The notes below the pieces were generated by a model. The model saw only the letters and a program-made list of their open reading frames with translations, did no database searches and was not told where the DNA came from. This document shows, in pieces, positions 10,834-28,546 of a stretch of DNA of 64,000 bases. The stretch spans positions 5,376 through 69,375 of the forward strand of contig JAAYMN010000066.1 in the NCBI GenBank assembly GCA_012521345.1, in the 5' to 3' direction. How positions within the stretch are numbered: the stretch's first letter is position 1; the number at the start of each line of letters is the position of its first letter. Made by a program: the position numbers and the translations under genes. This DNA comes from Bacillota bacterium (lineage in GTDB: Bacteria > Bacillota > Dethiobacteria > Dethiobacterales > Dethiobacteraceae).

Positions 10834-10836
10834 ATG

Positions 10837-12314: not shown

Positions 12315-12371
12315 AGCTGTGGCGACTAAAAACTCCGTTATGGTAAAGCCTTCTTCCCCATGAGTTTATTC

Positions 12372-12743: not shown

Positions 12744-12787
12744 CTCTCAGTCTCCAAAGCAAATCTTTTCCAGCAAATACCAGACCT

Positions 12788-13570: not shown

Positions 13571-13619
13571 TTTGGCATCCTTCCCGGATCGGAAAGATTT
13601 ATCGCAAGTTTCCGTTCCA

Positions 13620-15326
13620 TTACATAACCACCCTCAATATTTCTTCAATCGACGTAATCCCCTGCTTTACTTTGTACAAACCGTCCTGGCGGAGTGTTAT
13701 CATGCCCTCTTTCACCGCCAGGTTTTTTATTTCCGCCGCCGACCGCTGCTCCAAAGCAAGCTTTTGAATACCCTCCGTCACAAGCAGCAGTTCAAAAATA
13801 CCTATCCTTCCGGCATAACCTGTGTTGCTGCAGCAGAGGCAGCCGTTTTTATGCGGGCGGAAGAGCCTGATCTTATCTTCACCCGGTTCCAGCGGAAAGT
13901 CGGCAATTATTTCCGCCATCTTGCGGGTGATAAAGTATTCTTCCTTGCACTGCGGACACAGTTTGCGCGCCAGCCTCTGGGCCAAAATTCCCACAACCGA
14001 AGAGACTGTCAGGTACGGCTCCACTCCCATTTCCGTCAGGCGGCTGATGGCTCCCGCCGCATCATTTGTATGCAGGGTGGCAAACACCAAGTGTCCTGTC
14101 AGCGCCGACTCAATGGCTATCTGGGCAGTTTCCCTGTCCCGGATTTCCCCAACCATAATAATATCAGGGTCGCTGCGCAGGATGGACCGCAAGCCGGAGG
14201 CAAAAGTCAGCCCGGCTTTGGGATTGATCTGGATCTGGCTAATACCTTCCATCCTGTATTCCACCGGGTCCTCAATTGTAACAACATTTTTGGCCACTCT
14301 GTCCACCGCCGCCAGGCTGGCATAGAGGGTGGTGCTTTTACCGCTGCCCGTTGGTCCCGTCACAGGGATAAAACCGTAAGGCAGGTTGATCAGCTTTTTA
14401 TATTTCTCAAGGATTTGCGGCGCTACCCCCAGTTCTTCCAATGTGATTGCCCGGTCGCTGCGTTCCAGCAGGCGGAGTGTGACCCGCTCGCCGTAGCTGG
14501 CAGGCAGGGTGGCAACCCGCACGTCTACTTTTCGCCCTTCCACCTTAATCGACATGCGCCCGTCCTGAGGAACCCGCCGCTCCGCAATATCCATATTGGC
14601 CATAATTTTAAAACGGGTAACCAGGGGGCCATGCATCCGCCGCGGCGGGTGCATCACATCATGGAGAACACCATCGATACGAAAACGTACCCTTAATGAT
14701 TTTTCATCAACTTCAAGATGGACATCGCTGGCCTTTGCATTCACTGCCTGTGCAAGGATAATGTTGGCCAGCTGCACGGCCGGTTTTTCCGCATCAAAAG
14801 ACGCTATGAGCGCTTCTTCCGCCGGTTCTTCCTCCGGGCTAAAATGGTCTCCTGTTATTCCTTCCACGCTGACACTGGCCTGGCTGTAATTGTTTATTAC
14901 CGCCTCCAGCTCGCTGTCAGTCACCACCACTGCCTGAATGTTGTGTCCCGTAAGCACCCGCAGGTCATCCAAGACAAAGATATCCAGCGGTTGCTCCATG
15001 GCAACCAGCAGACGCCCGTCTTCCGTAAAATCAATAGGCAGCGCCTTGTACCGCCTGGCAATTTCCGCCGGGATGGTCGCCATGGCCGCCTCTTTGAGCG
15101 GGTATTTTTTCAGGCTGATAAAGGGAACACCGGCGCGCCGGGCAACTGTTCTCGCAATATCCTCTTCCGTGCAGAACCCCAGCCGGACAAGAACACTGCC
15201 CAAAGACAGCCTGTCGTCCTCATGTTCTTTCAGATAGTGCATGGCTTCCGCCAGCTGCTCTTCTGTAACAATCACGTCCTGAACAAGCTGTCTCCCCAAA
15301 GAATCATTCAGACCGTATTGCCTCAT
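13620..15326 (-). CDS. pilB: Type IV pilus assembly ATPase PilB (GspE family)
   Basis: T2SSE N-terminal domain, Walker A GPTGSGKSTT, Asp/His boxes, and a tetracysteine motif (CPQC...CLCC). Confidence 0.95.
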   Translation of the reverse strand: MRQYGLNDSLGRQLVQDVIVTEEQLAEAMHYLKEHEDDRLSLGSVLVRLGFCTEEDIARTVARRAGVPFISLKKYPLKEAAMATIPAEIARRYKALPIDFTEDGRLLVAMEQPLDIFVLDDLRVLTGHNIQAVVVTDSELEAVINNYSQASVSVEGITGDHFSPEEEPAEEALIASFDAEKPAVQLANIILAQAVNAKASDVHLEVDEKSLRVRFRIDGVLHDVMHPPRRMHGPLVTRFKIMANMDIAERRVPQDGRMSIKVEGRKVDVRVATLPASYGERVTLRLLERSDRAITLEELGVAPQILEKYKKLINLPYGFIPVTGPTGSGKSTTLYASLAAVDRVAKNVVTIEDPVEYRMEGISQIQINPKAGLTFASGLRSILRSDPDIIMVGEIRDRETAQIAIESALTGHLVFATLHTNDAAGAISRLTEMGVEPYLTVSSVVGILAQRLARKLCPQCKEEYFITRKMAEIIADFPLEPGEDKIRLFRPHKNGCLCCSNTGYAGRIGIFELLLVTEGIQKLALEQRSAAEIKNLAVKEGMITLRQDGLYKVKQGITSIEEILRVVM

Positions 15327-15446
15327 ACTCGCAAACCCCCCGTTAATACCATCCGCTTCGGGCCTGAAAAAATCGCGACCGGACTTCGGCCTCGCCGCCG
15401 GTTTCCGGAAAGCAGCCTCCTCTTGCTGGAGCAGGGGAAGGTCGCT

Positions 15447-15968
15447 TTAAGGCTGGAAAAATGTGCTTGCTTTGATGCTGATAGCAAAATTTCCCTGCTG
15501 CTGGCGCTCATTGATGCGGAGTTCCTGCAGGCGGACGGCCCGCTCCGACAGCCTCAGGTAATCAAGAAAAGCCAAAAGACAGGAATACTTGCCTTCAAGC
15601 TGCAGCTCCAGCGGGATTTCTCTATACCCCTGCCGGTCAATATGCTCCCCGTAACTGATCTGCAGCAGAGTCATCCCTGATAGGTCCGCCCCGGCCTGCA
15701 GATCCAATAAAAGCCTTCCTTCCGCAGGCTCTTCCGGCAAAAGCCGGGTCAACATCTCCAGTTCTGCTGCGAGCTTCTCCCCGATCAGCCTTTGCCCTTG
15801 CAGCATGGCCAGTTTTCTTTCACTTGCCAAAAGCACTTGTTTTGCCGCAGCCAACGCCTCTTTTTGCCTGCGCCATTCCTGAAACTGCAGCCAACATAAA
15901 ACAGCTGCTGCCGCCAGGAGAAAGGACACAACAAGCAGTACCGGAGGAAGCTGTCTGCTTCTCATCAC
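15447..15968 (-). CDS. pilO: Type IV pilus biogenesis protein PilO
   Basis: Single TM helix, coiled coil, then a ferredoxin-like C-terminus (PLELQLEGKYSCLLAFLDYL). It lies downstream of pilN with a 4-nt overlap. Confidence 0.8.
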   Translation of the reverse strand: MMRSRQLPPVLLVVSFLLAAAAVLCWLQFQEWRRQKEALAAAKQVLLASERKLAMLQGQRLIGEKLAAELEMLTRLLPEEPAEGRLLLDLQAGADLSGMTLLQISYGEHIDRQGYREIPLELQLEGKYSCLLAFLDYLRLSERAVRLQELRINERQQQGNFAISIKASTFFQP

Positions 15969-16549
15969 TCTTCACTCCTCCCGGCCGGCTGAGGAAGTTC
16001 CCCGGTAAACACCTCTGCCTCAAGCTTAAAACGTACAAGCTCCCCGTCTGCACCCTGCTCCAACGAGGAAAAGTTGATCCGTACGCCTGAAATATTGGGG
16101 ACAGCTTCCAGTACACCCGCCCAGTCTGCTGCAGCGGAATGACTGTCTGCCAACCCGTGCAGTGTCAAAGTACCCGATGCACCGTCAAAAACAAGCTCCA
16201 GGTTTGTCAGCCGGACACTGGCAGGGATCTGTCCCCCCAGTTCGGCAAGCGTCTCCCGCCAGCCAAATTCAGCCCCCATGGCTATAGTCAACAAGTTTTT
16301 TTTCACGTCGAGACTTTTCTGCAGTTCCGAAAGCGGTTCGTACTGCTCAATGTCCCTTTCTACAAATGCACGCTGCTTCTGTATACCGGCAATTTCAGCC
16401 GCCGTTTGCTGCGCAAGACAATCCAACTTGCCGAATATACCTAACAGCAGCGCCGCCAGGAGAAGAACCGCCAGGGAGCACCACTTCTGCCGGGACTTCC
16501 GCCTTTGCTCAGCCGCAATTTCAGCAGGCAGGAGGTTGATTTTAATCAT
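15965..16549 (-). CDS. pilN: Type IV pilus biogenesis protein PilN
   Basis: MIKINLLPAEIAAEQRRK followed by a TM helix is the canonical PilN N-terminus. Confidence 0.88.
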   Translation of the reverse strand: MIKINLLPAEIAAEQRRKSRQKWCSLAVLLLAALLLGIFGKLDCLAQQTAAEIAGIQKQRAFVERDIEQYEPLSELQKSLDVKKNLLTIAMGAEFGWRETLAELGGQIPASVRLTNLELVFDGASGTLTLHGLADSHSAAADWAGVLEAVPNISGVRINFSSLEQGADGELVRFKLEAEVFTGELPQPAGRSEE

Positions 16550-16551
16550 AC

Positions 16552-17574
16552 CTACACCTCCAGCCCGCGCAGTGCCAACGCCAGGCTGACGGCAAATTCC
16601 GGCTGCGAAAGGTCAACACCCGGTTTTCCCTGTACACCGGCGGCAGCTTGAGGTACAGCCACTTCAGCCGGCAATTGCAGTTCATCCTGCAAGAGTGTCG
16701 CCAGCCCGTGGACACGCGCCCCCAGGCCGCTGAGAACCAGCCTGTCCACTTTCTTGAACCGGTCATGGCGTACATAATAACCGAGGGAGATTTTAATTTC
16801 ACGGGCGACTATTTTGCACCAGTGCCGGACGTACATATCCTCCCCCGTACTCTTTTCCACTGCAGCCGCCACAAACTTGTCGTGCCGCCGGTCTCCGCCT
16901 GCCGCCACTTCCAGGTCTTTCAGGCACTGCTTAAGCGACACAGGCAGCATGCGGGCAAAACGCGGCATACCGTTTACTGCTATGACGATACTGCTCAACC
17001 CCAAAGCCAGGTCAACCATTACAACAATCCCCTGCCTTTTTGCCGGCGGCAGGAGCCGGGGCAGTGCCAGCGGCGACGCATCAACCACCACAGGCGTCAG
17101 TCTGCCGTGCCAAAAGGCTTGCAGGCATGCCATGAGCTGCTCCCGCCTGGCAGCTACCAACAGCACTTCATTAAGCAGCTCATTGTCAGCGTATGCCTCA
17201 CCAACAACAGCAAAATCCAGCACCGTCTGTGAGACGGGAATGGGCAGATGCGCCCCGGCCTGCAGGCGCAGTGCTTTTTTTATTTTCTCCCCCGGCAGCC
17301 TGGGAAAAGTAATCATGCGTATTAACACGCTCCGGTTAAATATTCCCGGCACTACCCGGCGGCTGCCAAACCTTGCTTCCTGCCAAAGGCTTTGCAAGGC
17401 TTTGCCCACCGCAGCTGCATCATTGACAACCCCGTCAATTATTGCCTCTTCCGGAACCTGCACCCGACCGGCTCCCACAACAAACGGCTTGCCGCTTTCC
17501 CCTTTAATTTCCACCGCCCGGAGTACTCCCGTGTCAAGTTCCACACCGACAATTCTGCTACTTCGCAGTTCCAT
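16552..17574 (-). CDS. pilM: Type IV pilus assembly protein PilM (actin-like ATPase fold)
   Basis: IVGVELDTGVLRAVEIK...VVDASPLAL...VMVDLALGLSSIVI is PilM/FtsA-like. It lies directly upstream of pilN. Confidence 0.9.
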   Translation of the reverse strand: MELRSSRIVGVELDTGVLRAVEIKGESGKPFVVGAGRVQVPEEAIIDGVVNDAAAVGKALQSLWQEARFGSRRVVPGIFNRSVLIRMITFPRLPGEKIKKALRLQAGAHLPIPVSQTVLDFAVVGEAYADNELLNEVLLVAARREQLMACLQAFWHGRLTPVVVDASPLALPRLLPPAKRQGIVVMVDLALGLSSIVIAVNGMPRFARMLPVSLKQCLKDLEVAAGGDRRHDKFVAAAVEKSTGEDMYVRHWCKIVAREIKISLGYYVRHDRFKKVDRLVLSGLGARVHGLATLLQDELQLPAEVAVPQAAAGVQGKPGVDLSQPEFAVSLALALRGLEV

Positions 17575-17587
17575 AATCTACCCCCGG

Positions 17588-18286
17588 TCAGACTTTTAGT
17601 ATTTTCGCCAGCTGCTGCAAACTCTTGTGTAAAATTCTGGACACATGCCGCTGGCTGATTCCCAGCAATCTGCCTGCCTGCGACTGGGTTAAGTCCCTGT
17701 AAAACAATAAATAAACTACTTTTTTCTGCAGCCTGCTTAACCGGCTGAAAGCTTCCTCCAGCCAGATTTTTTCTTCAATGGGCAGCCGGAAACTTTCATA
17801 AGACAGTGACCGGATCTGCTTCAGATCTATTTCTTCCAAAGAAACCAGTCCGGCCCGCATGGTCTCGATAATACCTTCCTCTTTGACATTCAGGCAAAGG
17901 GCAATCTCCGCAAGCCCCGGCGGTTCCCCCTTTTCTTTCACCACCGCTTCCACATAAGCATCAATTTTATGCTGCAGGTCTTTTATCACACCGGGCCGGT
18001 AATAAGCCGCCTCCCTGCGGATATAATGCCTGATCTCGCCCATTATACAGTGTGACGCATACGTGGAAAATGCCACTCCCCTGCCGGCATCAAACCTGCG
18101 CACCGCCTTCAGCAGTCCTTCCCTTCCCGCCTGCATCACATCTTCCGCAGCGCCCCCGGTATAAAGGCGGGCAAAATGCCGCACCAGCCGATCGGCCGCA
18201 GCAACAAGCTCTGCCAGGTCATCGTTGCTAAAACTGCTGCTGTAGCGATAATACAGGCTGTCCAAATTTTCCCGCCGCACCGCCAT
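17588..18286 (-). CDS. Group-3 sigma-70 family sigma factor (SigB/F/G-FliA-like) embedded in the pilus operon
   Basis: Region 2 (GREGLLKAVRRFDAGRGVAFSTYASHCIMGEIRHYIRR), a region 3 segment, and a region 4 HTH (LTQSQAGRLLGISQRHVSRILHKSL). Confidence 0.88.
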   Translation of the reverse strand: MAVRRENLDSLYYRYSSSFSNDDLAELVAAADRLVRHFARLYTGGAAEDVMQAGREGLLKAVRRFDAGRGVAFSTYASHCIMGEIRHYIRREAAYYRPGVIKDLQHKIDAYVEAVVKEKGEPPGLAEIALCLNVKEEGIIETMRAGLVSLEEIDLKQIRSLSYESFRLPIEEKIWLEEAFSRLSRLQKKVVYLLFYRDLTQSQAGRLLGISQRHVSRILHKSLQQLAKILKV

Positions 18287-18300
18287 GCCAATCTGTCCCC

Positions 18301-19506
18301 TTATTGCTGGTAAGTGGAAATTACCAAGAACATGGGAAGATAAAGGGCAATGACCATCACTGCAATTATTCCGCCAACACCAATAATCATTACCGGCTCT
18401 ATCAGGCTTGTCAGCCCTTTTGACAAAGCCGCCGCTTCCTGCTCGTAAAAATCGGCTACCCGGTTTAACAACCCGGGCATATCCCCTGTTTCCTCCCCCA
18501 CCGAAATCATTAGCGTCACCATAGGCGGGAAAAGGCCGCTTTCCTTTAGAGGCCGGGCTATATTCTGACCTTCCCTGATACAGTCCATTGCATACCGTAC
18601 AGCTTCCTGTACCAGACTGCTTCCTGCAGCCGGTCCTGCCGTCTCTAACGCCTGCAGGACAGGTATTCCCCCGGCAAGCAGGGCGGACAGCGTTCTTGTA
18701 AAGCGGGCAATTACGGTTCTCTGAACAAGGGGACCCAAAACCGGGATTTTAAATTTCAGCCGGTCGTAAACATGCCGGCCGGGGCCGGCAATATATACCC
18801 GAAGTCCCGAGACAAGCAGTACCCAACCTAAAAAGTAAAAATACCAGTAAGCTCGCAAAGTATCACTGAGGGCAATAAGAAAGCTCGTCAGAAATGGAAG
18901 CTCATAGCCTTCCGGGTAAAACCCTACAAACACCGGTACGATAAAAAGCAGCATGGCAATCATCAGCAGGAAGGCAAATACCAGGACTAATACAGGGTAA
19001 AACATGGCGGCACGAATATTGTCTCGCAGCATTTTTTCGCTCTCCAGCTGCTGCGACAGCTTGACCAGAACCGCCTCCAGCGTGCCCCCCACTTCCCCCG
19101 CATTTACCAGTTCGACATATATCCCGGAGAAAATGTCCCGGTAAGCCCGCAGCGCCTGGGAGAGGCTCATACCGCCTTCCACGCTCCTTGCCACTGCAGG
19201 AAGGACCTTGCCTAAAACAGGTGTCGTCGCCTGCTCCCCCAGGATATAAAGGCATCTGGTGAGCGGAATACCCGCACTTAGCATTGCCGCCAGCTGCCGG
19301 CTGAAAAGTGCCAATTCCCCGATACTGACTTTCCTTTGCAACGGGAAAACTTGACCCCAGGCTGGAGTTTTAACTTCATTTACTTCTAGCGGGATGTAGC
19401 CAAGTTTAAACAAACGTGCAGCAGCAACCAAGTCGCTTTCCGCTTCCAGCTTTCCTGAGACCACCGCACCACCCTTATCAAGCGCCTGATATGCAAATAG
19501 CGGCAT
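18301..19506 (-). CDS. pilC: Type IV pilus inner-membrane platform protein PilC (GspF family)
   Basis: Duplicated T2SSF domains (FSRQLAAMLSAGIPL... / FTRTLSALLAGGIPV...) and three TM segments. Confidence 0.95.
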   Translation of the reverse strand: MPLFAYQALDKGGAVVSGKLEAESDLVAAARLFKLGYIPLEVNEVKTPAWGQVFPLQRKVSIGELALFSRQLAAMLSAGIPLTRCLYILGEQATTPVLGKVLPAVARSVEGGMSLSQALRAYRDIFSGIYVELVNAGEVGGTLEAVLVKLSQQLESEKMLRDNIRAAMFYPVLVLVFAFLLMIAMLLFIVPVFVGFYPEGYELPFLTSFLIALSDTLRAYWYFYFLGWVLLVSGLRVYIAGPGRHVYDRLKFKIPVLGPLVQRTVIARFTRTLSALLAGGIPVLQALETAGPAAGSSLVQEAVRYAMDCIREGQNIARPLKESGLFPPMVTLMISVGEETGDMPGLLNRVADFYEQEAAALSKGLTSLIEPVMIIGVGGIIAVMVIALYLPMFLVISTYQQ

Positions 19507-19698
19507 TAATGCCCTCCATTTCTATTTTTATTCTGTATATACAACATTTTCCATATATATTTCGCCAATAAAGCCGATTCCCCTTCTGGATATCATACAT
19601 ATAAATACATTTTATGTAATATTTTATCATTATGTCTAAATTTGCTTTTTACAGGTATAACAACATTAAAAAGTTGAGTTTAAAGGAGGAAGACAATA

Positions 19699-20082
19699 AT
19701 GGGCAGACTGATTCGCAGGGCACAAAAAAATCAACAAGGCTTCACCCTTGTTGAGCTGATGCTGGTCGTTATCATTATTGGTGTACTTGTGGCCATCGCA
19801 GTACCCATTTATGGGAATGTAACCCAACAGGCTGCAGACAAGGCCCATGAAGCCAACAAGAGAGTATTGCTAGGTGCAGCACAAATGTTGTATGCCGATA
19901 AGGGTCCGGCTGTTGCCGGAACATTTACGAAAGAAGAACCAAAAGAACTTGAAGATTATATCGAAGAATGGCCTGAACTCCCTGAACGTCGCAGCGAAGA
20001 TACCGACTGGACAGGTTATTCTGTAACCCTGAGCGAAGACGGCACTGTCAAAGTGATTAACGCAGGCGGCAGTGAAAATTAG
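19699..20082 (+). CDS. pilA: Type IV major pilin (PilA-like)
   Basis: Strong SD (AAAGGAGGAAG). Leader MGRLIRRAQKNQQG|FTLVELMLVVIIIGVLVAIAVPIY. The gene is 127 aa and divergent from pilC. Confidence 0.9.
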   Translation: MGRLIRRAQKNQQGFTLVELMLVVIIIGVLVAIAVPIYGNVTQQAADKAHEANKRVLLGAAQMLYADKGPAVAGTFTKEEPKELEDYIEEWPELPERRSEDTDWTGYSVTLSEDGTVKVINAGGSEN

Positions 20083-20249
20083 TACGAAGACTTGCTGAGG
20101 GCTTTGCTGCTACTCATGCTGCAACAGGTTTCACAGCCGTCACGCCGGAATTAACAAATTTTTCTTTTATTTGCCGAGCGAAAGCGTCAATAAATTACTT
20201 CCGCATAATGCTTTGGCTGCTGTTTTGGAGTATGGTTTTTACGTAAAAC

Positions 20250-20291
20250 GGCAAGATACTAAAACCGGAACAGCTGATGTCAGCTGTTCCG
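20250..20291 (-). terminator. Intrinsic terminator ending the TasA-like locus
   Basis: 11-bp perfect stem cggaacagctg(20266-76)/cagctgttccg(20281-91) with a 4-nt loop. On the minus strand it is followed by GTTTTAGTATCTT. Confidence 0.6.
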
Positions 20292-20306
20292 ATCAATTAT
20301 TGTCTC

Positions 20307-20333
20307 ACCGGCAATTAAGCCGGTCTGTTTTTT
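20307..20333 (+). terminator. Weak candidate plus-strand terminator (pilA side)
   Basis: accggc(20307-12)/gccggt(20319-24) stem followed by CTGTTTTTT. The stem is only 6 bp and lies 225 nt after the pilA stop. Confidence 0.3.
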
Positions 20334-21147
20334 AGTTTTCTTCCTTATCACGTATTCTTGTAAGCAGAAAGCCTGTTCCCAGGAAGAAAGCACCGAGTAT
20401 CAATAAGGCAAAATTATATCCTCCGGTTCTGGGCAGGTCGACCCCGGGAGTTTCCGGTGGCAACTCAAAATCAACGTCTTCTCCGTCATCTGCACCGGCA
20501 GGCTCTTCCCCGCCGTCTTCCCCATTGCCCGTATCAGGAGGTACGGGCGGTGAATCTATATCTCCGTCTTCGCCATTATCTTCACCGGGAGGTTCAGGCG
20601 GGTTTTCGCCATTATCGGGAGACACAGGCGGCGAATCATCACCATCAGGCCAGGCGGCAATAAACTTCCAGGCCAGGTCAAGGGATTTCCCCTGATACTC
20701 ATTGCCTGCATCCTCTTTTAGGCTTACGGTAAAAGCAAGGTTTTCCGAAGTACCTGCCTGGATTTCTCCAATCTTGATACTGCTGAGGCCACTGATGGGC
20801 CCGCTGTAAAAAGTCTGATTGCTTCCCTGTTGCGAGATGCTGATATTGACCCCGTGGAAAAGCAGGTCGTCTCCTGCTTTCTTTTCCACTTCAATAAACA
20901 GCATAAACTCCCTTTGGCCGGTGTTGGAAATTCTCAGCGGCGAGGTTTCCGCTTTGCCTGGATACAGGTTGTTAATATTGAAGAACTGTTCTTCTTCCGG
21001 CACTACCTGAAGCCCCTTTTCTGTCCCGATAATCTCCAGGGAAGAGGCAAAGGAATGCTCGGCAAGCATCAGGCCGGCGGAAACAACAATGGATAAAAGC
21101 AATAAATATGTAATTGTCCTGCGCAAGCACACGGAAAATGTTTTCAC
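20332..21147 (-). CDS. Secreted TasA/camelysin-like domain protein with Pro/Asp/Gly-rich stalk and LPXTG cell-wall sorting signal
   Basis: Signal peptide ...AEHSFA|SS. NLYPGKAETSPLRISNTGQREF and ENLAFTVSLKEDAGNEYQGKSLDLAWKF match the camelysin/TasA pattern. The C-terminus is LPRTGG, a hydrophobic helix, then RIRDKEEN. Confidence 0.75.
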   Translation of the reverse strand: MKTFSVCLRRTITYLLLLSIVVSAGLMLAEHSFASSLEIIGTEKGLQVVPEEEQFFNINNLYPGKAETSPLRISNTGQREFMLFIEVEKKAGDDLLFHGVNISISQQGSNQTFYSGPISGLSSIKIGEIQAGTSENLAFTVSLKEDAGNEYQGKSLDLAWKFIAAWPDGDDSPPVSPDNGENPPEPPGEDNGEDGDIDSPPVPPDTGNGEDGGEEPAGADDGEDVDFELPPETPGVDLPRTGGYNFALLILGAFFLGTGFLLTRIRDKEEN

Positions 21148-21151
21148 ATTT

Positions 21152-22261
21152 TCACCCCGTTGTTTGATTTTGGTATCCCGCTTTTGTCTTGTATTTCAAC
21201 ATCGAAAGAGAAAGGGGCACAACATCAATAAAGTAAGTATAGATATACTCTGCAGACAGCACAAAGAATGAATGCCTGGCACCTTTCTCCAAATCATTTT
21301 TATAGTAGACGATTGGTTTCCCAAGTTCATCCGCAGTTTTCAGCAGGTCCTCAAAAGAACTGACAACTATGGTTTTCTCCGGCACAATAGTTGCCTGTCC
21401 GGTACATGAAACAATCCTGTCCTGATGTTTTTTTAATATCATGTTCACTTCTTTTTCCTGCAGGTTTATCGCCTGTTGCACCGGGAAAGTCATCAGTAGA
21501 AATGCCAGGAGCAAAACCAAAGAGACACCTGCGGCAATAACAAATCCAAACCGGGCGGTTTCCACGTACGGCAGGAATACGGTTATATCATCGGTAACGT
21601 TACCGGCTGTCTGTTTTTTCAGTTCACCGCCCACTGTAAATGTATTCCCCCGCAAAGGAATAATCATGGTGGGAACAAGCTCTTCCCTGATTACACTGGG
21701 GCTTGTCAAAGCCTCAATCCTGACTTTATACTGAACCTCAAGGTCAAGGTTTTCGGGAGAAAAATCTGTTTCTTCCCTGATCACACGCGCATACTCAAGG
21801 TAGTCGGCAATGGGGACAATAACGTTTTTACGGATATAAACACTGCCTGAGCCGGAAAAACTCTGAGGCGGCAAAAGTTCATCCGTCCTTTCCCAGACAA
21901 CAAGATTTTCACCGCCGACAGAAGCCTTCAGGGCGGCAATAACGCTATACTCCCCCTTTATCGCCACATTGTCGTCCACATGAAAACGGTATGATAAATC
22001 TGTGGAAATGTATTCAGTCCAGTTGGCAATGTACGCCCTTCCCGGCCCCACTACCGATTCAGGCAGTGTTGCACTGGGCAGCATCTGAACCTGGTAATCC
22101 ACCCAAGCTTCCTGGTTATAGGAATAAAGGGTGGTTTCCTCCACCTTTTCCATGGGAATCAGGTAGCTCCACGAAAGCCCTGCAGCTGATAATACCAGCA
22201 GGAAAAGAAAGACAACAATAACGCTTTGCCTGATTCTTTTTTTTACTTTATATTTCTTCAT
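21152..22261 (-). CDS. Bitopic membrane protein, DUF5305-like (recalled as a partner of SipW-type peptidases)
   Basis: N-terminal TM (VIVVFLFLLVLSAAGLSW), an extracytoplasmic domain of about 200 aa, a second TM (FGFVIAAGVSLVLLLAFLLMTF), then a cytoplasmic tail of about 100 aa. The family name is from memory only. Confidence 0.55.
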   Translation of the reverse strand: MKKYKVKKRIRQSVIVVFLFLLVLSAAGLSWSYLIPMEKVEETTLYSYNQEAWVDYQVQMLPSATLPESVVGPGRAYIANWTEYISTDLSYRFHVDDNVAIKGEYSVIAALKASVGGENLVVWERTDELLPPQSFSGSGSVYIRKNVIVPIADYLEYARVIREETDFSPENLDLEVQYKVRIEALTSPSVIREELVPTMIIPLRGNTFTVGGELKKQTAGNVTDDITVFLPYVETARFGFVIAAGVSLVLLLAFLLMTFPVQQAINLQEKEVNMILKKHQDRIVSCTGQATIVPEKTIVVSSFEDLLKTADELGKPIVYYKNDLEKGARHSFFVLSAEYIYTYFIDVVPLSLSMLKYKTKAGYQNQTTG

Positions 22262-22275
22262 GTCTGCATCCCTCT

Positions 22276-23457
22276 CTAGTGTTCATTGCCGGCAAGAAAT
22301 TGATCTGTACTGCGCCACCCAATAGTAATCCAGCCTGCCCGCGGAATCACATGTATCACTTTCCCCACCACCTGCTCAGCAAGCACAGGCTCGCTGTCTA
22401 TTCTTTCATTGGCATCACCTTTGGTAACGAACATGGGAAGTCCTCTTTCATCTTTCCTGATGTCCACCACACGGTGGGCAATTCTGGCTCCCTCCATCCG
22501 AAAAAGCAGTATGTCGTTCAATTCCACTTCATCAGGTTTAATGCGCTTGATGATGGCGATATCGCCCTGCTCTATAGCCGGTGACATGCTGCCTGAGACA
22601 ACAGCCGTGGGGAAAATGCTAAACACGCCAATTGCAAACCATACGATAAGAACGGATAGAACACTTGCCACAACCCATCCCATGGGACTTTCGCTGTCTT
22701 TTTTGCGGACCCGCAGCACCTCTGATTGGTGCAACTGATAAATCAGCACCAGGCAAAAAACCGTGACAAAAGTACTAACCATGGCATGTGCAATCCAGTT
22801 TAAATCCGGTAAAACCGGAGAAAACCAGTGAAAAGCCGCAAGCACCCCCCGGTAAATGATTGCCGGCAGCGGCCCTGCTAAAGAAGCAAGGTATGATGCA
22901 AGAATATTTTCCGATAACACGGGAATAACGGTATTGCCAACAAACTGGGCCGCTTCCTGAAACGTTTTCAACATAACCAAGCGCCTGAGGGAAAAGCCAA
23001 ATAAAGAATAAATGATACCGGTAAGAACAATCCCTATTACTTGGCGCTTGGCAAATAAAGAATTCATCAACCACGAACGGCTAAGCTCCATGCCCGCCAG
23101 CATAGAGCAAAGATAAAAGAGATTTATTATGATGCCGGTAAAACTGTGATCATACGGGCTGCGCCCCAAGCCTGTCATGAAACCAACAGCAAAAACGGCC
23201 ACTACAGTCGCTATCCCGCAAATCAGCCCTGCCCAACAAAACATTTTCCGGTGGCGAGCTTTCACCATAAGCCTGACCTGGTCCAGCCGCAACCTGATGA
23301 TAAGAGCAAGCAAACCCCAGAAAACGGCAGGCAAAATATAATTTCCCCACAGCCCGGTTAAAAACCGCCCGGAAACAAGATTGCTTGCAAGCAGCATGCC
23401 TATAAAAAAAGCAGGATTCCCATACCCTGCCAGGTACGGGCACCGGTAAGCTTGCAC
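22276..23457 (-). CDS. Fusion protein: polytopic membrane domain (about 280 aa, unknown family) plus C-terminal SipW/ER-type S26 signal peptidase I
   Basis: The C-terminus reads VVSGSMSPAIEQGDIAIIKR...RIAHRVVDI...FVTKGDANERID (Ser/His SipW-type motifs). The N-terminal part has about 7-8 hydrophobic helices. GTG start preceded by GGAGGTG. Confidence 0.8.
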   Translation of the reverse strand: MQAYRCPYLAGYGNPAFFIGMLLASNLVSGRFLTGLWGNYILPAVFWGLLALIIRLRLDQVRLMVKARHRKMFCWAGLICGIATVVAVFAVGFMTGLGRSPYDHSFTGIIINLFYLCSMLAGMELSRSWLMNSLFAKRQVIGIVLTGIIYSLFGFSLRRLVMLKTFQEAAQFVGNTVIPVLSENILASYLASLAGPLPAIIYRGVLAAFHWFSPVLPDLNWIAHAMVSTFVTVFCLVLIYQLHQSEVLRVRKKDSESPMGWVVASVLSVLIVWFAIGVFSIFPTAVVSGSMSPAIEQGDIAIIKRIKPDEVELNDILLFRMEGARIAHRVVDIRKDERGLPMFVTKGDANERIDSEPVLAEQVVGKVIHVIPRAGWITIGWRSTDQFLAGNEH

Positions 23458-23484
23458 AACAGGGAAGACACCTCCGTTATCCGG

Positions 23485-24018
23485 CTACTCTGCTTCCGCT
23501 TCTATTGCATCTGCTCCATTGTTACTGCTTGTATCCCCTGCTACCTGTTCTACTTCCGTCTCCATGACGACCTCGTATTCATCGACTGCTTCTTTTCCAT
23601 TGCCGTCAATTTCTTCTACGCTCTGCTCACTCTCTATTGCTTTATTTTCTTCAATGATTTGTCCGTTCTCATCTTCTTTTTTTTGATCTGTCGTTCTTTC
23701 ATATTCTTCCTCAGCATTTTCTCCTTCTGCTCCTTCTTTTTCTTCTTCTTTAACACTGTTGTCTGCTTCTTCTATATCAACGGCATAGCCGACCCCCGGT
23801 TCAGTATCATTTTCAACAGTGCCCGTTTCCGGCCCGGTCTCTGTTTCCGGAACTGCCCATTCAGTGGTTGTAATGCTTCCCTGCACCCGAAGCGAGTCCT
23901 GCCAGGAAGACAAGCCCACGGGAAGCAAAAAAAGAGCAATAACAAGCCAAAACAATACAAAGGGAGCTTTTTTCAGCAAAATTCTCACCTGACCAGTGTT
24001 TTTGTTTTGCGTTCTCAC
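23485..24018 (-). CDS. Secreted protein with SipW-cognate-like N-terminus and long acidic disordered tail
   Basis: KKAPFVLFWLVIALFLLPVGLSS|WQDSLRVQGSITT is followed by about 120 aa rich in E/D. The start is uncertain (GTG 24018 or an internal TTG). Confidence 0.6.
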   Translation of the reverse strand: MRTQNKNTGQVRILLKKAPFVLFWLVIALFLLPVGLSSWQDSLRVQGSITTTEWAVPETETGPETGTVENDTEPGVGYAVDIEEADNSVKEEEKEGAEGENAEEEYERTTDQKKEDENGQIIEENKAIESEQSVEEIDGNGKEAVDEYEVVMETEVEQVAGDTSSNNGADAIEAEAE

Positions 24019-24038
24019 TTTTCGGCAAGGGAGAGCAG

Positions 24039-24068
24039 CCCGGGGAAAGGGTAAACCCTTCCCCCGGG
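24039..24068 (-). promoter_or_regulatory. Intercistronic GC-rich stem-loop between the putative major subunit gene and downstream genes
   Basis: cccggggaaaggg-taa-acccttcccccggg forms a stem of about 12 bp starting 10 nt after the stop at 24078. No U-run follows on the minus strand. Confidence 0.55.
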
Positions 24069-24077
24069 AGTGTACAC

Positions 24078-24803
24078 TTAAACATTAGGATTAGGTTCTA
24101 CATAATTCCATTGTACGAATTCAAATTCAATTTCAAATTCAACGGTTTGATTTTGCAGACTTACACCATTAAGTGTATTAGGTGCTTCAGGGTTTATCCG
24201 GAAATAAAGTGTGTTCTCGCCGCCTTCTTCATCATCAGCGCCGAACCTGATAGTCCACCCCGGGTACAGTACAACATTTACCAAAGCATTGTACAATGTA
24301 TTTTCAAAATCAGAAAGATTTTCCCAGTTATTATTTATTGGAAGCAAAATTTCTCTGAGAACATTATTATTATCATAAAGCATTATATCAGCTTTGCCTT
24401 CTAAATAGTTGTATAGCTGACCAGGTCCGCCAGTATGCTTGATATTAACAGCCTTTACTTTTGACGGCACAGTACCGGTATTCTCAATCCGGAGAGTATA
24501 TTTTGCCACCGCGCCTGGATACATGTTGTACATTCCAATTGGGAGAGCATTGCCGATAAAAGTTTCGTGATCGGGATACCACGATGTAGGGCCATCGAAA
24601 TTGTCAATAGAAATGTAATGCCACTCAGGTTGATATTTAAAAGGATATGATGAAGCATGCTTGGAATATATCCAAGTGTGTTCAAGCTTACCGGTCTGAA
24701 CTGTTCCATCTAGCATCATAGTATTTGCCCAATATGCATACGCTCCGCCCATTAAACCGAACAACAATACCAATGCCAAAGCAAGAAATTTTACCTTTTT
24801 CAC
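24078..24803 (-). CDS. Secreted TasA/camelysin-superfamily-like protein (candidate major fibre subunit)
   Basis: Signal peptide MKKVKFLALALVLLFGLMGGAYA|YWANTMMLDGTVQTGKLE. MYPGAVAKYTLRIENTGTVPSKV resembles the TasA-family L.PGD...V.N.G motif. Confidence 0.7.
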   Translation of the reverse strand: MKKVKFLALALVLLFGLMGGAYAYWANTMMLDGTVQTGKLEHTWIYSKHASSYPFKYQPEWHYISIDNFDGPTSWYPDHETFIGNALPIGMYNMYPGAVAKYTLRIENTGTVPSKVKAVNIKHTGGPGQLYNYLEGKADIMLYDNNNVLREILLPINNNWENLSDFENTLYNALVNVVLYPGWTIRFGADDEEGGENTLYFRINPEAPNTLNGVSLQNQTVEFEIEFEFVQWNYVEPNPNV

Positions 24804-25045
24804 TTAACCTTCCTCCCTAAATCTGAACTCTAACGCTACCACTGTTTACAATCCGCAAAGCTTACTTAGCTGTTGAAATATTAACCTTTTCCCTCACTCC
24901 CTTCAAAAAACTGTGCGGAACGTGCTCGCATACTGTGTAAAAAGCCCCACTGCATTAATGTAAATGATTGAAGATTATAGGGAGTTAATGGATGCAAGTC
25001 CCCGCACTGCCGCTAACACTGTTTGACAGGTTAGTGGTGAGTAAA

Positions 25046-25564
25046 TTACAATTGCACAAAATCCAGACTAAAGCTAAAACTGCACCGACCGGGCTCAGCC
25101 ACATCCTGGATTGTGATTTGAATACAGCCGGTGGCTGTTTCTCCGCTTTTCAGAACTTCCGGTGTCAGTGTATTTCCTAATACTATGGCGCCGGGCTCAA
25201 GCAGGATTTCAGGTTCAGGAAATAAGGACTGCAGCCTTAAAGGCAAACTGCCCCGGTTGACAATCTCGTAGGCGAACAGGGCATTGTACCCGGGATAAGC
25301 ATCTTCAATGAGAATTGAAATTGTTTTTTCGTCCCAATCGATCCGGAAAGTTGGGTTTTTCAGGCCATCGGGTGTTTTGCTGTGGTTATCAAGCCAGCAC
25401 CTGGTAACTACAGGGTCAATCTTCCCGGTGGATGCGGTAACATTGATTGCGAGTTGGTCCCGCCATACAGCGTAACCCAACCCTAGTACACTGAATACCG
25501 CTGTAAGGGTGAAGCAAAAAAGCCACCCCGGCAAGATTAGCTTTTTCGCGCCTTTATTTCTCAC
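25046..25564 (-). CDS. Secreted TasA/camelysin-superfamily-like protein (paralog)
   Basis: The GTG at 25564 is preceded by GGAGAG. The N-terminus is MRNKGAKKLILPGWLFCFTLTAVFSVLGLGYA|VWRDQLAINVTASTGKID, and YPGYNALFAYEIVNRGSLPLRL follows. The track ORF starts at TTG 25579. Confidence 0.7.
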   Translation of the reverse strand: MRNKGAKKLILPGWLFCFTLTAVFSVLGLGYAVWRDQLAINVTASTGKIDPVVTRCWLDNHSKTPDGLKNPTFRIDWDEKTISILIEDAYPGYNALFAYEIVNRGSLPLRLQSLFPEPEILLEPGAIVLGNTLTPEVLKSGETATGCIQITIQDVAEPGRCSFSFSLDFVQL

Positions 25565-25607
25565 AAGCAGCTCTCCCAAAAAACAGAATTATTATTATTA
25601 AAGAGCT

Positions 25608-25841
25608 TTACTTTTTGGCCCATGCATGCTTTCTGTTTGCCAGGTTTTCACTGCTGTTTGTTACAAGTGCTTCATGCATGAGCAAAATCATTTCCAACAT
25701 ACTGCGGAAATGAGCAGTTTTCTTTTCATCAAGCCATTGGATGGTCCCCTGCCAACTGGTATTTTGTCTGAACTGAATTCTGATAAGGAAAGCCGCCCCA
25801 CCAAGCTTGCGGGCGTTTTCCCTATCAATACTAATGTCCAT
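25608..25841 (-). CDS. Small (77 aa) conserved hypothetical protein, no signal peptide
   Basis: Good SD (GGAGG, 9 nt, ATG). The core FLIRIQFRQNTSWQGTIQWLDEKKTAHFRSMLEMILLM resembles a small-protein family I recall from Clostridia with unknown function. Confidence 0.6.
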   Translation of the reverse strand: MDISIDRENARKLGGAAFLIRIQFRQNTSWQGTIQWLDEKKTAHFRSMLEMILLMHEALVTNSSENLANRKHAWAKK

Positions 25842-26081
25842 GAATGCCTGCCTCCAAAAAAAGCCGAAGGCAATGGCATCTTCTTGTCAGGTACGCAACT
25901 CCTTTGGGGATCTGGATTCCTCCGGCTTTTTGTTCATGGCTCAACTATAACAATCTGGAGACTACAACCTGGTCACGGCCAAATCACGTTTGCATCACTT
26001 TGTGGTCACAACTTGATCAAAAAAAGCCTGCTGCCCTAGGCATGCTTATTAAGGCAAAAAAAAAAGAAACCCTCACGGCTT

Positions 26082-27284
26082 TCAAGATTTGTGATACTGT
26101 GGAAATGTTACTGCATAAAGTGAAAGAGGCGCCATCGGCTGAAGTTTGGTGTATAAAACAACATCAGGATGAATTTTTTTAAAATCGCTGCAGATCCGGT
26201 TTAAGACTTTTTCTCCCTGTTCAAAGCTTAGGCCGGGAAGCAGAAGCAAAAACTGCGTATCGTTCCACTTTGTCACCACATCACCCTTGCGCAGACTTGC
26301 AAGCAAGAAGCAAAGCAGGCTGTCGGCTGTCTTGTTGATGTCCGGAACTTTTTGATTGACAGCCGCCAATGTCAGCAGTGCCAAAAACACCGGATTGCCT
26401 GATCTTTCCAGCCTTCTGCGCTCCAACCTGTAAAACTCACCAAAGATGTCGGGTTCACAAAAGTAGGCTTTATCAAATACATGTTCTGCCAGCCGGTATT
26501 GAATTGACAATAAATCAGCTTTAACATTGTCATATTCCGCCTTTAATCTTTGGTAAACATTTTTCATGGCCAGAGACGGTTTAATGCCCAATTCACGGTA
26601 AAAAAGCGATGTTATGTAGCCATAATGGGATTTGGCTTCTTTAATTTTACCCAATGCCAAGAGGGCATCAATAAAGTAGATATGGAAATCCTCTTCAAAT
26701 AACTCGAGAGCAAATACTGATTCGCAGATTTTTATGATTGCATGGTATCTTTGCTTGTTGTGCAACAGCTTTAACAACTCCAGGGCGCCTTGCAGATAGA
26801 TATGGCGATAATAGCTTCTTGCCGGATGCGCCCATTCGTCATACGCACACTCGGGGAGGTAGTCGCCCTTATACAAGGCAATGGCTTCTAAGTAAACTTC
26901 GATGGCTTTTTCGGGGTCACTTGCGGCTAAATCCTGTCCCTGCTTGCAGAGCATCTCAAATTCATCGGCGTCAAGCCAATAATCCCCGGCAAGGCTCCAC
27001 CTGTAGCAACCCTGTGAGTAAACTATATTATCACTGTACTTTGCATTGTTTTCATGAAGCAGCTTGCGCAAGCGGTAGATAGCAGTCCGAAGCGCCTTTT
27101 TGGGGTCGGAGTAATTTTTTTCCGGCCATAGCGTATCCATTATCACTTCAGGGAGAATGTTTTTGTCGCGATTTGTTAAAAGATATTTGAACAGTTTCCA
27201 CAGCTTGTACGACTTGTTGGCATGTTCGGAGACAATTCTATCGCCACATTTAACATAAAATTTACCAAAAGTATGAATTTCCAA
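26082..27284 (-). CDS. SARP-family transcriptional regulator: winged-helix DNA-binding domain, BTAD, and a degenerate GGDEF-like C-terminal domain
   Basis: The N-terminus (FGKFYVKCGDRIV...LFKYLLTNRDKNILPEVIMDTLWPE...ALRTAIYRLRKLL) is OmpR/SARP-type wHTH. A TPR-like BTAD follows (YKGDYLPE...WAHPARSYY). The C-terminus RKGDVVTKWNDTQFLLLLPG aligns to R..D...R.GGDEF..LLP with the GGDEF motif lost. Confidence 0.75.
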   Translation of the reverse strand: MEIHTFGKFYVKCGDRIVSEHANKSYKLWKLFKYLLTNRDKNILPEVIMDTLWPEKNYSDPKKALRTAIYRLRKLLHENNAKYSDNIVYSQGCYRWSLAGDYWLDADEFEMLCKQGQDLAASDPEKAIEVYLEAIALYKGDYLPECAYDEWAHPARSYYRHIYLQGALELLKLLHNKQRYHAIIKICESVFALELFEEDFHIYFIDALLALGKIKEAKSHYGYITSLFYRELGIKPSLAMKNVYQRLKAEYDNVKADLLSIQYRLAEHVFDKAYFCEPDIFGEFYRLERRRLERSGNPVFLALLTLAAVNQKVPDINKTADSLLCFLLASLRKGDVVTKWNDTQFLLLLPGLSFEQGEKVLNRICSDFKKIHPDVVLYTKLQPMAPLSLYAVTFPQYHKS

Positions 27285-27529
27285 GGGTTTTGTACTCCAT
27301 TTTGCGTCTGATATTCAAAAGGATACGCCCCCTATCTGCAAACAAGCTTCAGCACAGGTACATTTTGGTTTTGCCAAACAATGTGGAAATGTGTAGACAT
27401 CCCCTACAAACAGAAAGAGTCCCTGACTAAGACTTTTTTAAACCAGCCAGGAACTTTAGATAATATTATTATTATCAATTAAAGTTGTAAATGTATTATT
27501 CTACATCTGTTTGAAATTTCCTTTTTTGG

Positions 27530-27578
27530 CTGCCAAATCAAAACAAAAAGCGCAACTGCCCCCGCAGGCTGCTGCGCT
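27530..27578 (-). terminator. Intrinsic terminator after the tadG-like gene
   Basis: Imperfect GC stem agcgca..gcc (27549-60) / ggc..tgcgct (27567-78). On the minus strand it is followed by CTTTTTGTTTTGATTT. Confidence 0.55.
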
Positions 27579-27613
27579 TGCTTGTTACTGTGCTTGCTTG
27601 TTTCCGCTTAATA

Positions 27614-28546
27614 TTATCTTATTAAATTTACTGCCGTCACACCGTAATCCGCAGCGTTATCGTCTATTTGGCCGGTAACGATGGTGTCGACGAACCAGCC
27701 CCGTATAATGCTTTGGTTGCCCTGTTTGGGTGGATGGTTTTTGTTGAGGAAGAAGGCGGCAAAACCTACTACCTCCACTTCCTGCCTCCCACCTCCGGTC
27801 GGTTGCTTTATGACCGGAATATAGACCAGGAGGGGGCAGCCGGGTTTGAAATTGGCAAAAGTACAGTTATCCTGGCAGCGGTTGACACGCTCCAGAAAAC
27901 CTGCCCTTGTCGGGCCGGACATGTTGCCCGGCTCCGTTTCCAGGATATCCCCTACTTTTATTTGTCCCTGGTAGCCCCTGCTCAAGTTTTTCTTGTAATT
28001 CGCGGCACCCTTGCCGCCCAAAGCGAGGGCGCCAAAGTTACCCGGTCCAAGTTCACCCGCAGGAAACGATTTCAGATGATATTCCTGCCCCTTGACAAAA
28101 TCCTGTTCCACAATCGTCAGTGGAACGACACCGGTAAGCGCCGAAACTGTTCCCGTCAGGGCGGTGGCGGTAGCGGAGACATCTCCCGTAAAAAAGCCCA
28201 GCACACGGGCAAAGGAATACTGTACATTATCCCTGACCGTGACAGTGACCGCCCGCCCGCCGTGTGACAGGCCGGCTTCGACCACTTCCGGCTCCACGCC
28301 GTTTAAGACGGCATATTCCACTGCCTTCTCCAGGGCCTGGCTGCCTGCCCCCGGATTAAGGACCAGTTCCTGGGCGCCTGCCAGCGCAGCCGCGTCGGCG
28401 GCAGTTGCCAGCGCTCTTCTTTTTGCCGCCAGAAGCCCGTAATCAGTCACCATGGCCGCCGAACCAAGCAAGGCCACCATGGCCAGCATAACAATGACAA
28501 GGGAACTGCCTTTTTCTTCCCTTACCAATCTTGTCAAAAACCTCAT
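27614..28546 (-). CDS. TadG-like (Tad/Flp pilus-associated) pseudopilin-like protein
   Basis: N-terminus REEKGSSLVIVMLAMVALLGSAAMVTDYGLLAAKRRALATAADAAALAGA is the TadE/G-like N-terminal motif (pfam13400-type). Confidence 0.75.
   Translation of the reverse strand: MRFLTRLVREEKGSSLVIVMLAMVALLGSAAMVTDYGLLAAKRRALATAADAAALAGAQELVLNPGAGSQALEKAVEYAVLNGVEPEVVEAGLSHGGRAVTVTVRDNVQYSFARVLGFFTGDVSATATALTGTVSALTGVVPLTIVEQDFVKGQEYHLKSFPAGELGPGNFGALALGGKGAANYKKNLSRGYQGQIKVGDILETEPGNMSGPTRAGFLERVNRCQDNCTFANFKPGCPLLVYIPVIKQPTGGGRQEVEVVGFAAFFLNKNHPPKQGNQSIIRGWFVDTIVTGQIDDNAADYGVTAVNLIR

Follow-up and report, generated by a model that had tools for sequence, protein, structure and literature searches.

The 64,000-nucleotide (nt) stretch analysed here, hereafter the window, comes from a Bacillota bacterium of the family Dethiobacteraceae (assembly GCA_012521345.1, contig JAAYMN010000066.1, positions 5,376 to 69,375). 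Its minus strand carries seven co-directional open reading frames (ORFs), g1 to g7, which form one operon running from 25841 down to 20332 and which probably serve to build an extracellular fibre of the AbpX type, within the TasA superfamily. A first-pass annotation made from the sequence alone had outlined these seven genes, and all of them are present as ORFs. The identical locus is found in several anaerobic-digester and biogas metagenome assemblies, and the NCBI annotation describes its products as hypothetical proteins. Here we explore what the products are, how widely the locus is conserved and how the fibre could be assembled. The operon contains the following features, given in the direction of transcription.

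25608-25841, minus strand: g1, first gene of the operon, 77 amino acids (aa), with a GGAGG Shine-Dalgarno sequence (SD) 9 nt 5' of its ATG
25046-25564, minus strand: g2, secreted subunit, 172 aa from a GTG start, with GGGAG 5' of the start
24078-24803, minus strand: g3, secreted subunit, 241 aa, with the strongest SD of the operon (AGGGAGGAAGG) and a 240-nt spacer upstream
24039-24068, minus strand: stem-loop after the g3 stop codon, a perfect 13 bp, GC-rich and without a U-tract
23485-24018 or 23485-23979, minus strand: g4, strand-only protein, 177 or 164 aa owing to an ambiguous start (GTG 24018 or TTG 23979)
22276-23457, minus strand: g5, 393 aa, signal peptidase I with an N-terminal membrane domain
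21152-22261, minus strand: g6, 369 aa, two-pass membrane protein of the DUF5305 family
20332-21147, minus strand: g7, 271 aa, LPRTG cell-wall anchor, last gene ahead of the terminator
20263-20294, minus strand: intrinsic terminator, a 14-bp stem followed by UUUU

The GGAGG of g1 is the good SD that had been noticed at 25841, and the terminator hairpin that had been placed at 20266-20291 was recovered as the element at 20263-20294, with z = -7.4 against shuffled sequences for an 81-nt stretch. For the stem-loop behind g3, which the first-pass annotation does not mention, the enclosing 61-nt stretch reaches -28 kcal/mol (z = -3.1); this stem-loop may act as a stabiliser, an attenuator or a partial terminator and thereby favour g3 over the downstream genes. 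The 240-nt spacer between g2 and g3 is not conserved with the closest related locus (L005), and the minus strand there has no consensus sigma-70 site. A search for riboswitches and leaders in 19500-28000 gave a single match, at chance level and within the g5 coding sequence.

Related loci, referred to by L numbers where they have to be told apart, were collected by scanning one genome per species with the g5-type peptidase. The scan returned 80 loci and the total set comprises 84. Anchor genes, sought within 8 kb, were counted over 81 distinct loci, and the position of g4-class genes was scored in 67.

Subunits, strand-only protein and wall anchor

Both g2 and g3 consist of a signal peptide, a donor strand and a jelly-roll core, the strand following the predicted cleavage site directly (GYA↓VWRDQLAINVTASTGKID in g2 and AYA↓YWANTMMLDGTVQTGKLE in g3, the arrow marking cleavage). 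The N-terminal strands thus exposed begin with VWRDQLAINV in g2 and YWANTMMLDG in g3, and that of g4 with SWQDSLRVQG. The proposal that g2 and g3 are paralogs stands: judged by sequence they are weakly but really related, as distant paralogs, since BLASTP aligns them with 23% identity (E = 5e-5) and hhalign compares their family profiles with a probability of 99.7% (E = 1.5e-25).

Single-sequence scans of g2, g3 and g4 against Pfam and NCBIfam gave no match, or sub-threshold matches to SipW-cognate models only, and a word-indexed homolog search with g3 gave one non-self relative. Relatives of g3 were therefore collected by an exhaustive HMMER profile search (E <= 1e-3), which resulted in a family of 1537 cluster representatives. 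The consensus over a 118-sequence alignment of this family reads GYA↓xWTDxxxIxxTVxTGxL...NLYPG......N.GTIP. The motif that had been noticed behind the cleavage sites of three products of the operon proves to be family-wide: in the form [small]-x-[AGS]↓x-(W/Y/F)-x-x...TG it occurs in 208 of the 231 subunit-like ORFs of the 84 loci, with mature position 2 taken by W in 123, Y in 55 and F in 30 of them. The second sequence feature that had been pointed out, a YPG....Y...I.N.G..P strand, was found as YPG...N.G..P in g2, g3 and g7.

The best characterised point of comparison is AbpX of the archaeon Pyrodictium abyssi, whose fibril was solved by cryo-electron microscopy (PDB 9sj2, 9rhp) in a preprint of January 2026 (bioRxiv 10.64898/2026.01.04.697558, hereafter the AbpX preprint). 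This fibril is held together by donor-strand complementation, with calcium at the interface of strand and groove; the calcium is liganded by E4, and W2 provides an aromatic clamp. When searched against the PDB, the g3-family profile matched AbpX 9sj2 with E = 5e-17 and Bacillus subtilis TasA (8aur, 5of1) with E = 2e-4 to 5e-4; the g2-family profile matched AbpX 9sj2 with E = 2e-12 and did not reach TasA. The AbpX alignments open exactly at the donor strand with mature Trp2 and extend through the YPGA...EN.GT.P strand. On these profiles g2 and g3 belong to the AbpX clade of the TasA superfamily, and their nearest characterised relative is archaeal AbpX, not TasA or camelysin. The parallel to TasA and camelysin drawn in the first-pass annotation thus holds at the level of the superfamily, although not for the closest relative.

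A fold comparison led to the same superfamily. The AlphaFold2 (AF2) model of g3 (predicted local distance difference test, pLDDT, 85) has a beta-rich core and leaves residues 26-41 unstructured; in monomeric AbpX the donor strand without a partner is likewise unstructured (AbpX preprint). Foldseek against the PDB placed the TasA fibre 8aur_A on top, with probability 1.0 and a template modelling score (TM-score) of 0.40, and archaeal AbpA 7ueg fourth.

Trp2 is found in g2 and g3, and in g4 too if this is cleaved at GLS↓S. Mature position 4 is D in g2 and g4 and N in g3, the consensus of the g3 family being W-T-D at positions 2 to 4. Acidic clusters (DWDE in g2, PDHE in g3) are close to the loop that corresponds to AbpX D46/D48/E52, as far as a manual alignment can place them. 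Calcium dependence appears plausible for g2, given D4 and the DWDE loop; it is uncertain for g3, which has N4 and is less acidic. The strong SD of g3, the hairpin that follows it and the label given to the equivalent gene class in the AbpX preprint point to g3 as the probable major subunit, with g2 a minor one.

Protein g4 is built differently. Its signal peptide is followed by the strand S-W-Q-D-S-L-R-V-Q-G-S-I-T-T and then by an acidic tail of about 120 aa with 36% D+E; a jelly-roll core is absent and no family was matched in Pfam or NCBIfam. The signal peptide had been recognised before, with cleavage after LSS; the site probably lies one residue earlier, at GLS↓SWQD, Trp then being the second mature residue of g4, as it is of g2, g3 and AbpX. 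The residues that precede cleavage are GYA in g2, AYA in g3, SFA in g7 and GLS in g4, with GYG or GYS in most g4-class homologs. Genes of this donor-strand-only class lie immediately 5' of the peptidase gene in 46 of the 67 loci scored. Their tails range from 31 to 344 aa, are mostly acidic and are conserved among close relatives only. TapA of B. subtilis is a donor-only initiator whose gene lies directly 5' of sipW and whose role in the filament is limited to initiation (PMC10151520). Because both genes immediately precede the peptidase gene and TapA is a donor-only initiator, g4 is proposed as an analogue of TapA without homology to it, which would initiate the fibre or cap its distal end.

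The last product, g7, has a signal peptide (HSFA↓SS), a core, an acidic Pro-rich stalk, the LPRTG motif, a transmembrane segment and a basic tail. Its core is related to that of the subunits (hhalign of the g7 and g3 families 98.5%, E = 2.8e-15, with the match confined to the core), and its mature N-terminus, SSLEIIGTEKGLQV, has no Trp-x-Asp strand. By sequence, then, g7 is a predicted cell-wall anchor that combines an AbpX/TasA-type core without the Trp donor strand and an LPRTG sorting signal. It also passes, marginally, the Pfam model Peptidase_M73 (5.8e-5, 23.5 bits against a cut-off of 22.5 bits). Reading such proteins as camelysin 'metalloproteases' was rejected, since, according to the literature, the name of the family probably goes back to CalY having been mistaken for a peptidase.

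Two variants of g7 were seen in related loci. In the Syntrophomonadaceae loci L006 (12347-13465) and L007 (12348-13484) the g7 homolog has no LPXTG; a C-terminal transmembrane segment with a cytoplasmic domain of about 100 aa makes it a membrane-anchored variant of the groove-only anchor. The Peptococcaceae locus L009 (8869-9705, 13308-14192 and 14265-14927) carries two groove-only anchors with LPXTG, and a sortase (Pfam Sortase, 7e-28) is encoded alongside.

The sorting signal of g7, and the sortase gene next to one related locus (L009), could also suggest a pilus of the SpaA type, in which a pilus-specific sortase joins the subunits covalently. We consider this very improbable, since LPXTG is present on g7 only and missing from g2, g3 and g4, the window holds no sortase, Pfam finds no CnaB, SpaA or pilin-motif domains, and the subunits are homologous to polymers held together by non-covalent donor strands. 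Donor-strand polymerisation of an AbpX-type fibre is therefore preferred.

Signal peptidase, DUF5305 protein and conserved neighbourhood

In g5 an N-terminal membrane domain of eight helices (residues about 1-250) is followed by an anchor helix and a catalytic domain; the AF2 model has ten helices in all (pLDDT 90.6). The C-terminal third is a signal peptidase of the endoplasmic reticulum (ER)/archaeal type (TIGR02228, E = 2e-22), in which S290, H328, D348 and D354 are invariant among 95 homologs. Foldseek matched the catalytic domain to human SEC11A and SEC11C (TM-score 0.65, 27-28% identity) and next to Streptococcus pyogenes SipA, a peptidase homologue required for pilus polymerisation. Against the SipW equivalog NF046067 g5 scored 60.2 bits, below the cut-off of 190 bits. 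More than 224 full-length homologs share the architecture of g5.

Conservation of the membrane domain is high and includes a G(R/K)SPYDHS loop, a GMELSRAWLxN motif and the invariant residues E124 and R127. Profile searches of Pfam and the PDB found no sequence relative, and no match to CPBP (PF02517). The closest fold by Foldseek is that of the CAAX protease Rce1 (4cad_C), aligned over 262 columns with a probability of 0.98, TM-scores of 0.40 and, on the target, 0.57, and E = 0.18. Compared with the CPBP motifs EExxxR, FxxxH and HxxxN, only E124-x-x-R127 is invariant and there is no invariant His. We have rejected the assignment of this domain as a CPBP/Rce1 protease, which would stand on the fold match with empty profile searches and without the catalytic His motifs; because these motifs are absent, the likeness to Rce1 is kept as a lead only.

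Protein g6 matches DUF5305 (PF17231) with E = 1.3e-26. It had been taken for a bitopic membrane protein, which is not borne out: it has two transmembrane segments (13-31 and 238-256), an outside domain of about 205 aa (32-237) and a cytoplasmic domain of about 113 aa (257-369). The same two-segment topology is found in the DUF5305 proteins for which the AbpX preprint proposes the role of 'SPase accessory', and by this analogy g6 is a putative peptidase accessory or assembly factor.

The neighbourhood of the fused peptidase is well conserved. Its neighbour is a DUF5305 gene in 77 loci out of 84, and 73-74 encode AbpX-like subunits, with one to six subunits per locus and a mode of three after one profile iteration; the orthologous class of g2 is found upstream of the peptidase in most loci. 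Hosts include Syntrophomonadaceae, Peptococcaceae, Thermincola, Phosphitispora and Desulfitobacterium, as well as Sedimentibacter, Tissierellia, Natronincola, Geosporobacter and Clostridium. The nearest relatives, L005 and L006/L007, have the same order of regulator and g1 to g7. More distant loci follow the order histidine kinase, LuxR-type response regulator, g2-like, g4-like, peptidase, one to four g3-like genes, DUF5305 and anchor.

Two of the related loci have a large protein inserted between the subunit genes and DUF5305. That of L080 (14941-18033) has 1030 aa with CarboxypepD_reg and Y_Y_Y-like repeats, and that of L027 (12860-14035) has 391 aa with a bacterial Ig-like domain; both may be tip adhesins.

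Among the 81 distinct loci, an LPXTG protein was found nearby in 18, an SLH protein in 20 and no anchor within 8 kb in 43; of the LPXTG proteins, 15 are themselves AbpX/TasA-like. The proteins of the operon might accordingly be a set of loosely associated or non-filamentous matrix proteins, in the manner of TasA or BsaA, with g7 as a separate surface protein. Besides the 43 loci without an anchor gene, this would agree with the lattices and hydrogels, rather than discrete pili, that P. abyssi AbpX makes and with the reported membrane association, not wall association, of Clostridium perfringens BsaA oligomers. We nevertheless regard it as unlikely. Protein g7 itself has an AbpX/TasA-type core and is encoded by the last gene of the operon ahead of the terminator, and, having no donor strand, it makes sense only as a terminal acceptor. 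The AlphaFold 3 models of the AbpX preprint also put LPXTG anchors in donor-strand oligomers with subunits. A fibre tethered to the wall by g7 is the better reading.

Regulator and flanking genes

The features that flank the operon are as follows.

27614-28546, minus strand: TadE/TadG-like protein (Pfam Tad, Tad_C), just upstream of the regulator
26082-27284, minus strand: putative regulator of the locus, a SARP-type winged helix and BTAD fused to a degenerate GGDEF domain
10387-20082: complete type IV pilus (T4P) cluster, with minor pilins, PilD, PilB, PilO, PilN, PilM, a sigma-70 family factor and PilC

In Pfam the regulator matches BTAD (2e-16), Trans_reg_C (5e-6) and GGDEF (0.029). NDTQF replaces the active-site motif of its GGDEF domain, and an RxxD I-site (RKGD) lies five residues upstream. 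Homologs of the regulator flank the locus in eight other genomes, and in two re-assemblies of the same organism; in all of them R(K/R)GD is kept and the active-site motif is degenerate, and an alignment of the window's regulator with nine homologs has the RxxD I-site in ten out of ten. A degenerate active site together with a conserved I-site suggests activation in response to cyclic di-GMP (c-di-GMP). From its domain sequence the protein is probably a candidate c-di-GMP receptor and transcriptional activator that would couple expression of the locus to c-di-GMP. Homologs of the adjacent TadE/TadG-like protein are also found near the related loci L005, L009 and L028.

The product of g1 is small and basic (isoelectric point, pI, about 10), has no signal peptide and carries the conserved pattern F..R.QF...SWQG.IQWL.....FRS.LE..L..EA..W. 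No Pfam or PDB relative was found. Its family comprises about five protein clusters, all within homologous loci (L005, L006, L007, L009 and L010). In L009 the homolog of g1 is found at the end of the locus instead.

On the other side, a convergent pilin with GFTLVE (19699-20082) closes the T4P cluster, which directly abuts g7. This position invites the thought that the fibre proteins are substrates of the adjacent T4P or type-II-secretion-like machinery and are pushed in folded form through the peptidoglycan, a route that has been proposed for the bsa operon of C. perfringens; there, T4P genes are required if BsaC and the oligomers of BsaA are to be secreted efficiently (PMC11580942). We think it improbable, since the adjacency is confined to this organism and its closest relative L005, and the AbpX-type locus is self-contained elsewhere: the surroundings of the peptidase in the other approximately 78 genomes are free of T4P genes, PilB-like matches in two loci apart.

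Related systems and a route of assembly

The first-pass annotation could not match the locus to any described system, and on this point it has been overtaken. The AbpX preprint defines archaeal and bacterial 'abpX loci' that encode a major AbpX, AbpX-like minor subunits, tip proteins, a signal peptidase I with ten transmembrane segments and the DUF5305 'SPase accessory'. Bacterial abpX loci add LPXTG or SLH anchors, sortases, histidine kinases, two-component regulators and c-di-GMP enzymes; the examples given are Clostridium amylolyticum (LPXTG) and Natronincola peptidivorans (SLH). The latter was retrieved with the peptidase of the window as L064, and its nine genes, from the kinase to a triple-SLH protein, match nine accessions of Table S3 of the preprint. 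Because the abpX loci have a matching parts list, the locus is, as judged by sequence comparison, a further member of the bacterial abpX kind, of which the gene architecture was already described, by comparison of genomes, in 2025-2026.

The likeness extends to AbpX-homologous subunits with Trp2 and an amphipathic donor strand, the ten-helix peptidase, DUF5305, a subunit-like LPXTG anchor and a regulator of the c-di-GMP type nearby. The window differs in gene order, with g3 upstream of the peptidase; in its regulator, SARP with degenerate GGDEF instead of a histidine kinase with response regulator; in the extra 77-aa gene g1; in Asn4 of g3, which is not acidic; and in the lower acidity of its subunits. 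The donor-strand-only class and the fold of the membrane domain of the peptidase are not discussed in the text of the preprint.

The paradigm of B. subtilis, tapA-sipW-tasA, shares a dedicated ER-type signal peptidase for jelly-roll subunits that polymerise by donor strands (as homology suggests here), and a donor-only protein encoded immediately 5' of the peptidase, TapA there and g4 here. It differs in several respects: g2 and g3 fall outside Pfam Peptidase_M73, g5 reaches 60 of the 190 bits of the SipW equivalog and has eight extra helices, g4 is not a TapA homolog and has an acidic tail in place of the folded Ig domain, and B. subtilis lacks the DUF5305 protein and the LPXTG anchor found here.

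The sipW-bsaA-bsaB-bsaC operon of C. perfringens also belongs to the TasA family (PMC7395162, PMC11580942), and Kivimaki et al. described BsaA/TasA paralogs as often sharing their operon with genes for sortases, signal peptidases and LPXTG proteins (PMC11580942). In common with the window this operon has a SipW-type peptidase, more than one paralog and predicted donor-strand exchange; T4P genes are implicated in its export. It differs in that g3 scores 16.8 bits against the BsaA cut-off of 60 bits (TIGR04090), that no von Willebrand A protein is found here, that the peptidase has another architecture and that DUF5305 is present here. An Asn-Glu-Lys isopeptide triad is not evident either, the 118-sequence alignment of the g3 family having no invariant Lys or Glu.

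Tat-fimbriae of haloarchaea (PMC11821415, PMC12337348) are likewise donor-strand fibres of the wider TasA superfamily, and their gene cluster encodes TafD, a polytopic S26 peptidase, as well as TafG, a member of DUF5305. Their signal peptides are of the Tat type, whereas those of the window are of the Sec type, in a bacterial host and with an LPXTG anchor. Chaperone-usher pili (Fim/Pap) offer a likeness of logic, since there too the distribution of donor strands and grooves among the subunits determines the order. In those pili the tip adhesin is groove-only and a terminator stops growth, whereas the groove-only protein of the window is the wall anchor; chaperone and usher are absent here, the folds are unrelated in sequence and the envelope is Gram-positive.

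We consider it likely, with a probability of about 0.8, that the locus is an AbpX-type operon of the TasA superfamily for an extracellular fibre tethered to the cell wall and built by donor-strand complementation. This agrees with the core of the first-pass annotation, in which a dedicated, wall-tethered fibre system of the TasA superfamily has a SipW-type peptidase to itself, several subunit paralogs and an LPXTG anchor; profiles, fold and neighbourhood all support that reading. From the homology, fold, domain content and conserved synteny observed here we infer how the fibre may be cleaved by g5, polymerised, ordered, dependent on calcium, anchored by sortase and regulated. The Sec pathway would export g2, g3, g4 and g7, and g5, probably with g6, would remove their signal peptides; the shared aromatic residue at -2 and small residue at -1 fit recognition by one dedicated peptidase. 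Cleavage would free the amphipathic strand x-W-x-(D/N)-x-L-x-I on g2, g3 and g4, and this strand would enter the open jelly-roll groove of the subunit that follows; calcium may be bound where the two meet, as it is in AbpX. Given that g2 and g3 have strand and groove, g4 a strand only and g7 a groove only, the sole consistent linear order would be g4 -> (g3/g2)n -> g7. A sortase whose gene lies outside the window would join g7, as terminal acceptor, to peptidoglycan through LPRTG, while g4 would initiate the fibre or cap its distal end and display its polyanionic tail. Expression would probably be tied to c-di-GMP by the upstream SARP and degenerate GGDEF regulator.

Several points weigh against this interpretation. 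At mature position 4 the presumed major subunit g3 has Asn where an acidic residue is conserved. Acidity is lower in the subunits than in AbpX (mature g2 pI 4.57 and 12.9% D+E; g3 pI 4.59 and 11.9%; AbpX about 4.0 and about 15%), which makes their calcium dependence uncertain. Foldseek relates the g3 model to TasA with modest scores (TM-score 0.40, E = 2e-3), and the choice between g2 and g3 as major subunit draws only on SD strength, the hairpin behind g3 and analogy with other loci. Protein g7 keeps a short N-terminal segment, LEIIG, that is a possible strand and that, if acting as one, would weaken the strict argument on subunit order. A search of the 64-kb window for a TLxTC sortase ORF found no sortase gene. 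Finally, polymerisation, cleavage by g5 and anchoring are argued from homology, the bacterial kind being known only from genome comparison and structure prediction.

A more specific proposal, which we make tentatively and would not expect to hold in full, is that the fibre orders itself, its polarity and length being set by the g4 class, the bifunctional subunits and the groove-only anchor, and, in addition, that the eight-helix domain of g5 and the DUF5305 protein may form an assembly platform. With its His-less Rce1-like domain this platform may resemble the eukaryotic signal peptidase complex and couple cleavage to strand hand-over. Neither the self-ordering fibre nor the assembly platform is spelled out in the text of the AbpX preprint.

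Donor-strand fibres of the TasA superfamily are emerging as a means of building biofilm matrix across domains of life, and the locus is a compact and complete example, with regulator, two subunits, donor-only protein, peptidase, accessory protein and wall anchor. Its setting is that of syntrophic Firmicutes of anaerobic digesters, where aggregation of cells matters for granule formation and interspecies metabolism. The division into strand-only, strand-plus-groove and groove-only proteins gives a testable model of polarity, initiation and wall attachment without chaperone or usher. The polytopic peptidase, paired with DUF5305, offers a readily accessible counterpart in prokaryotes of the multi-subunit signal peptidase complex. 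What goes beyond the preprint is the donor-only gene 5' of the peptidase, which repeats the tapA-sipW arrangement, and the weak fold resemblance to Rce1. The locus would serve well as a starting point for experiments on bacterial AbpX-type fibres, with the donor-only class and the membrane domain of the peptidase as modest new leads.

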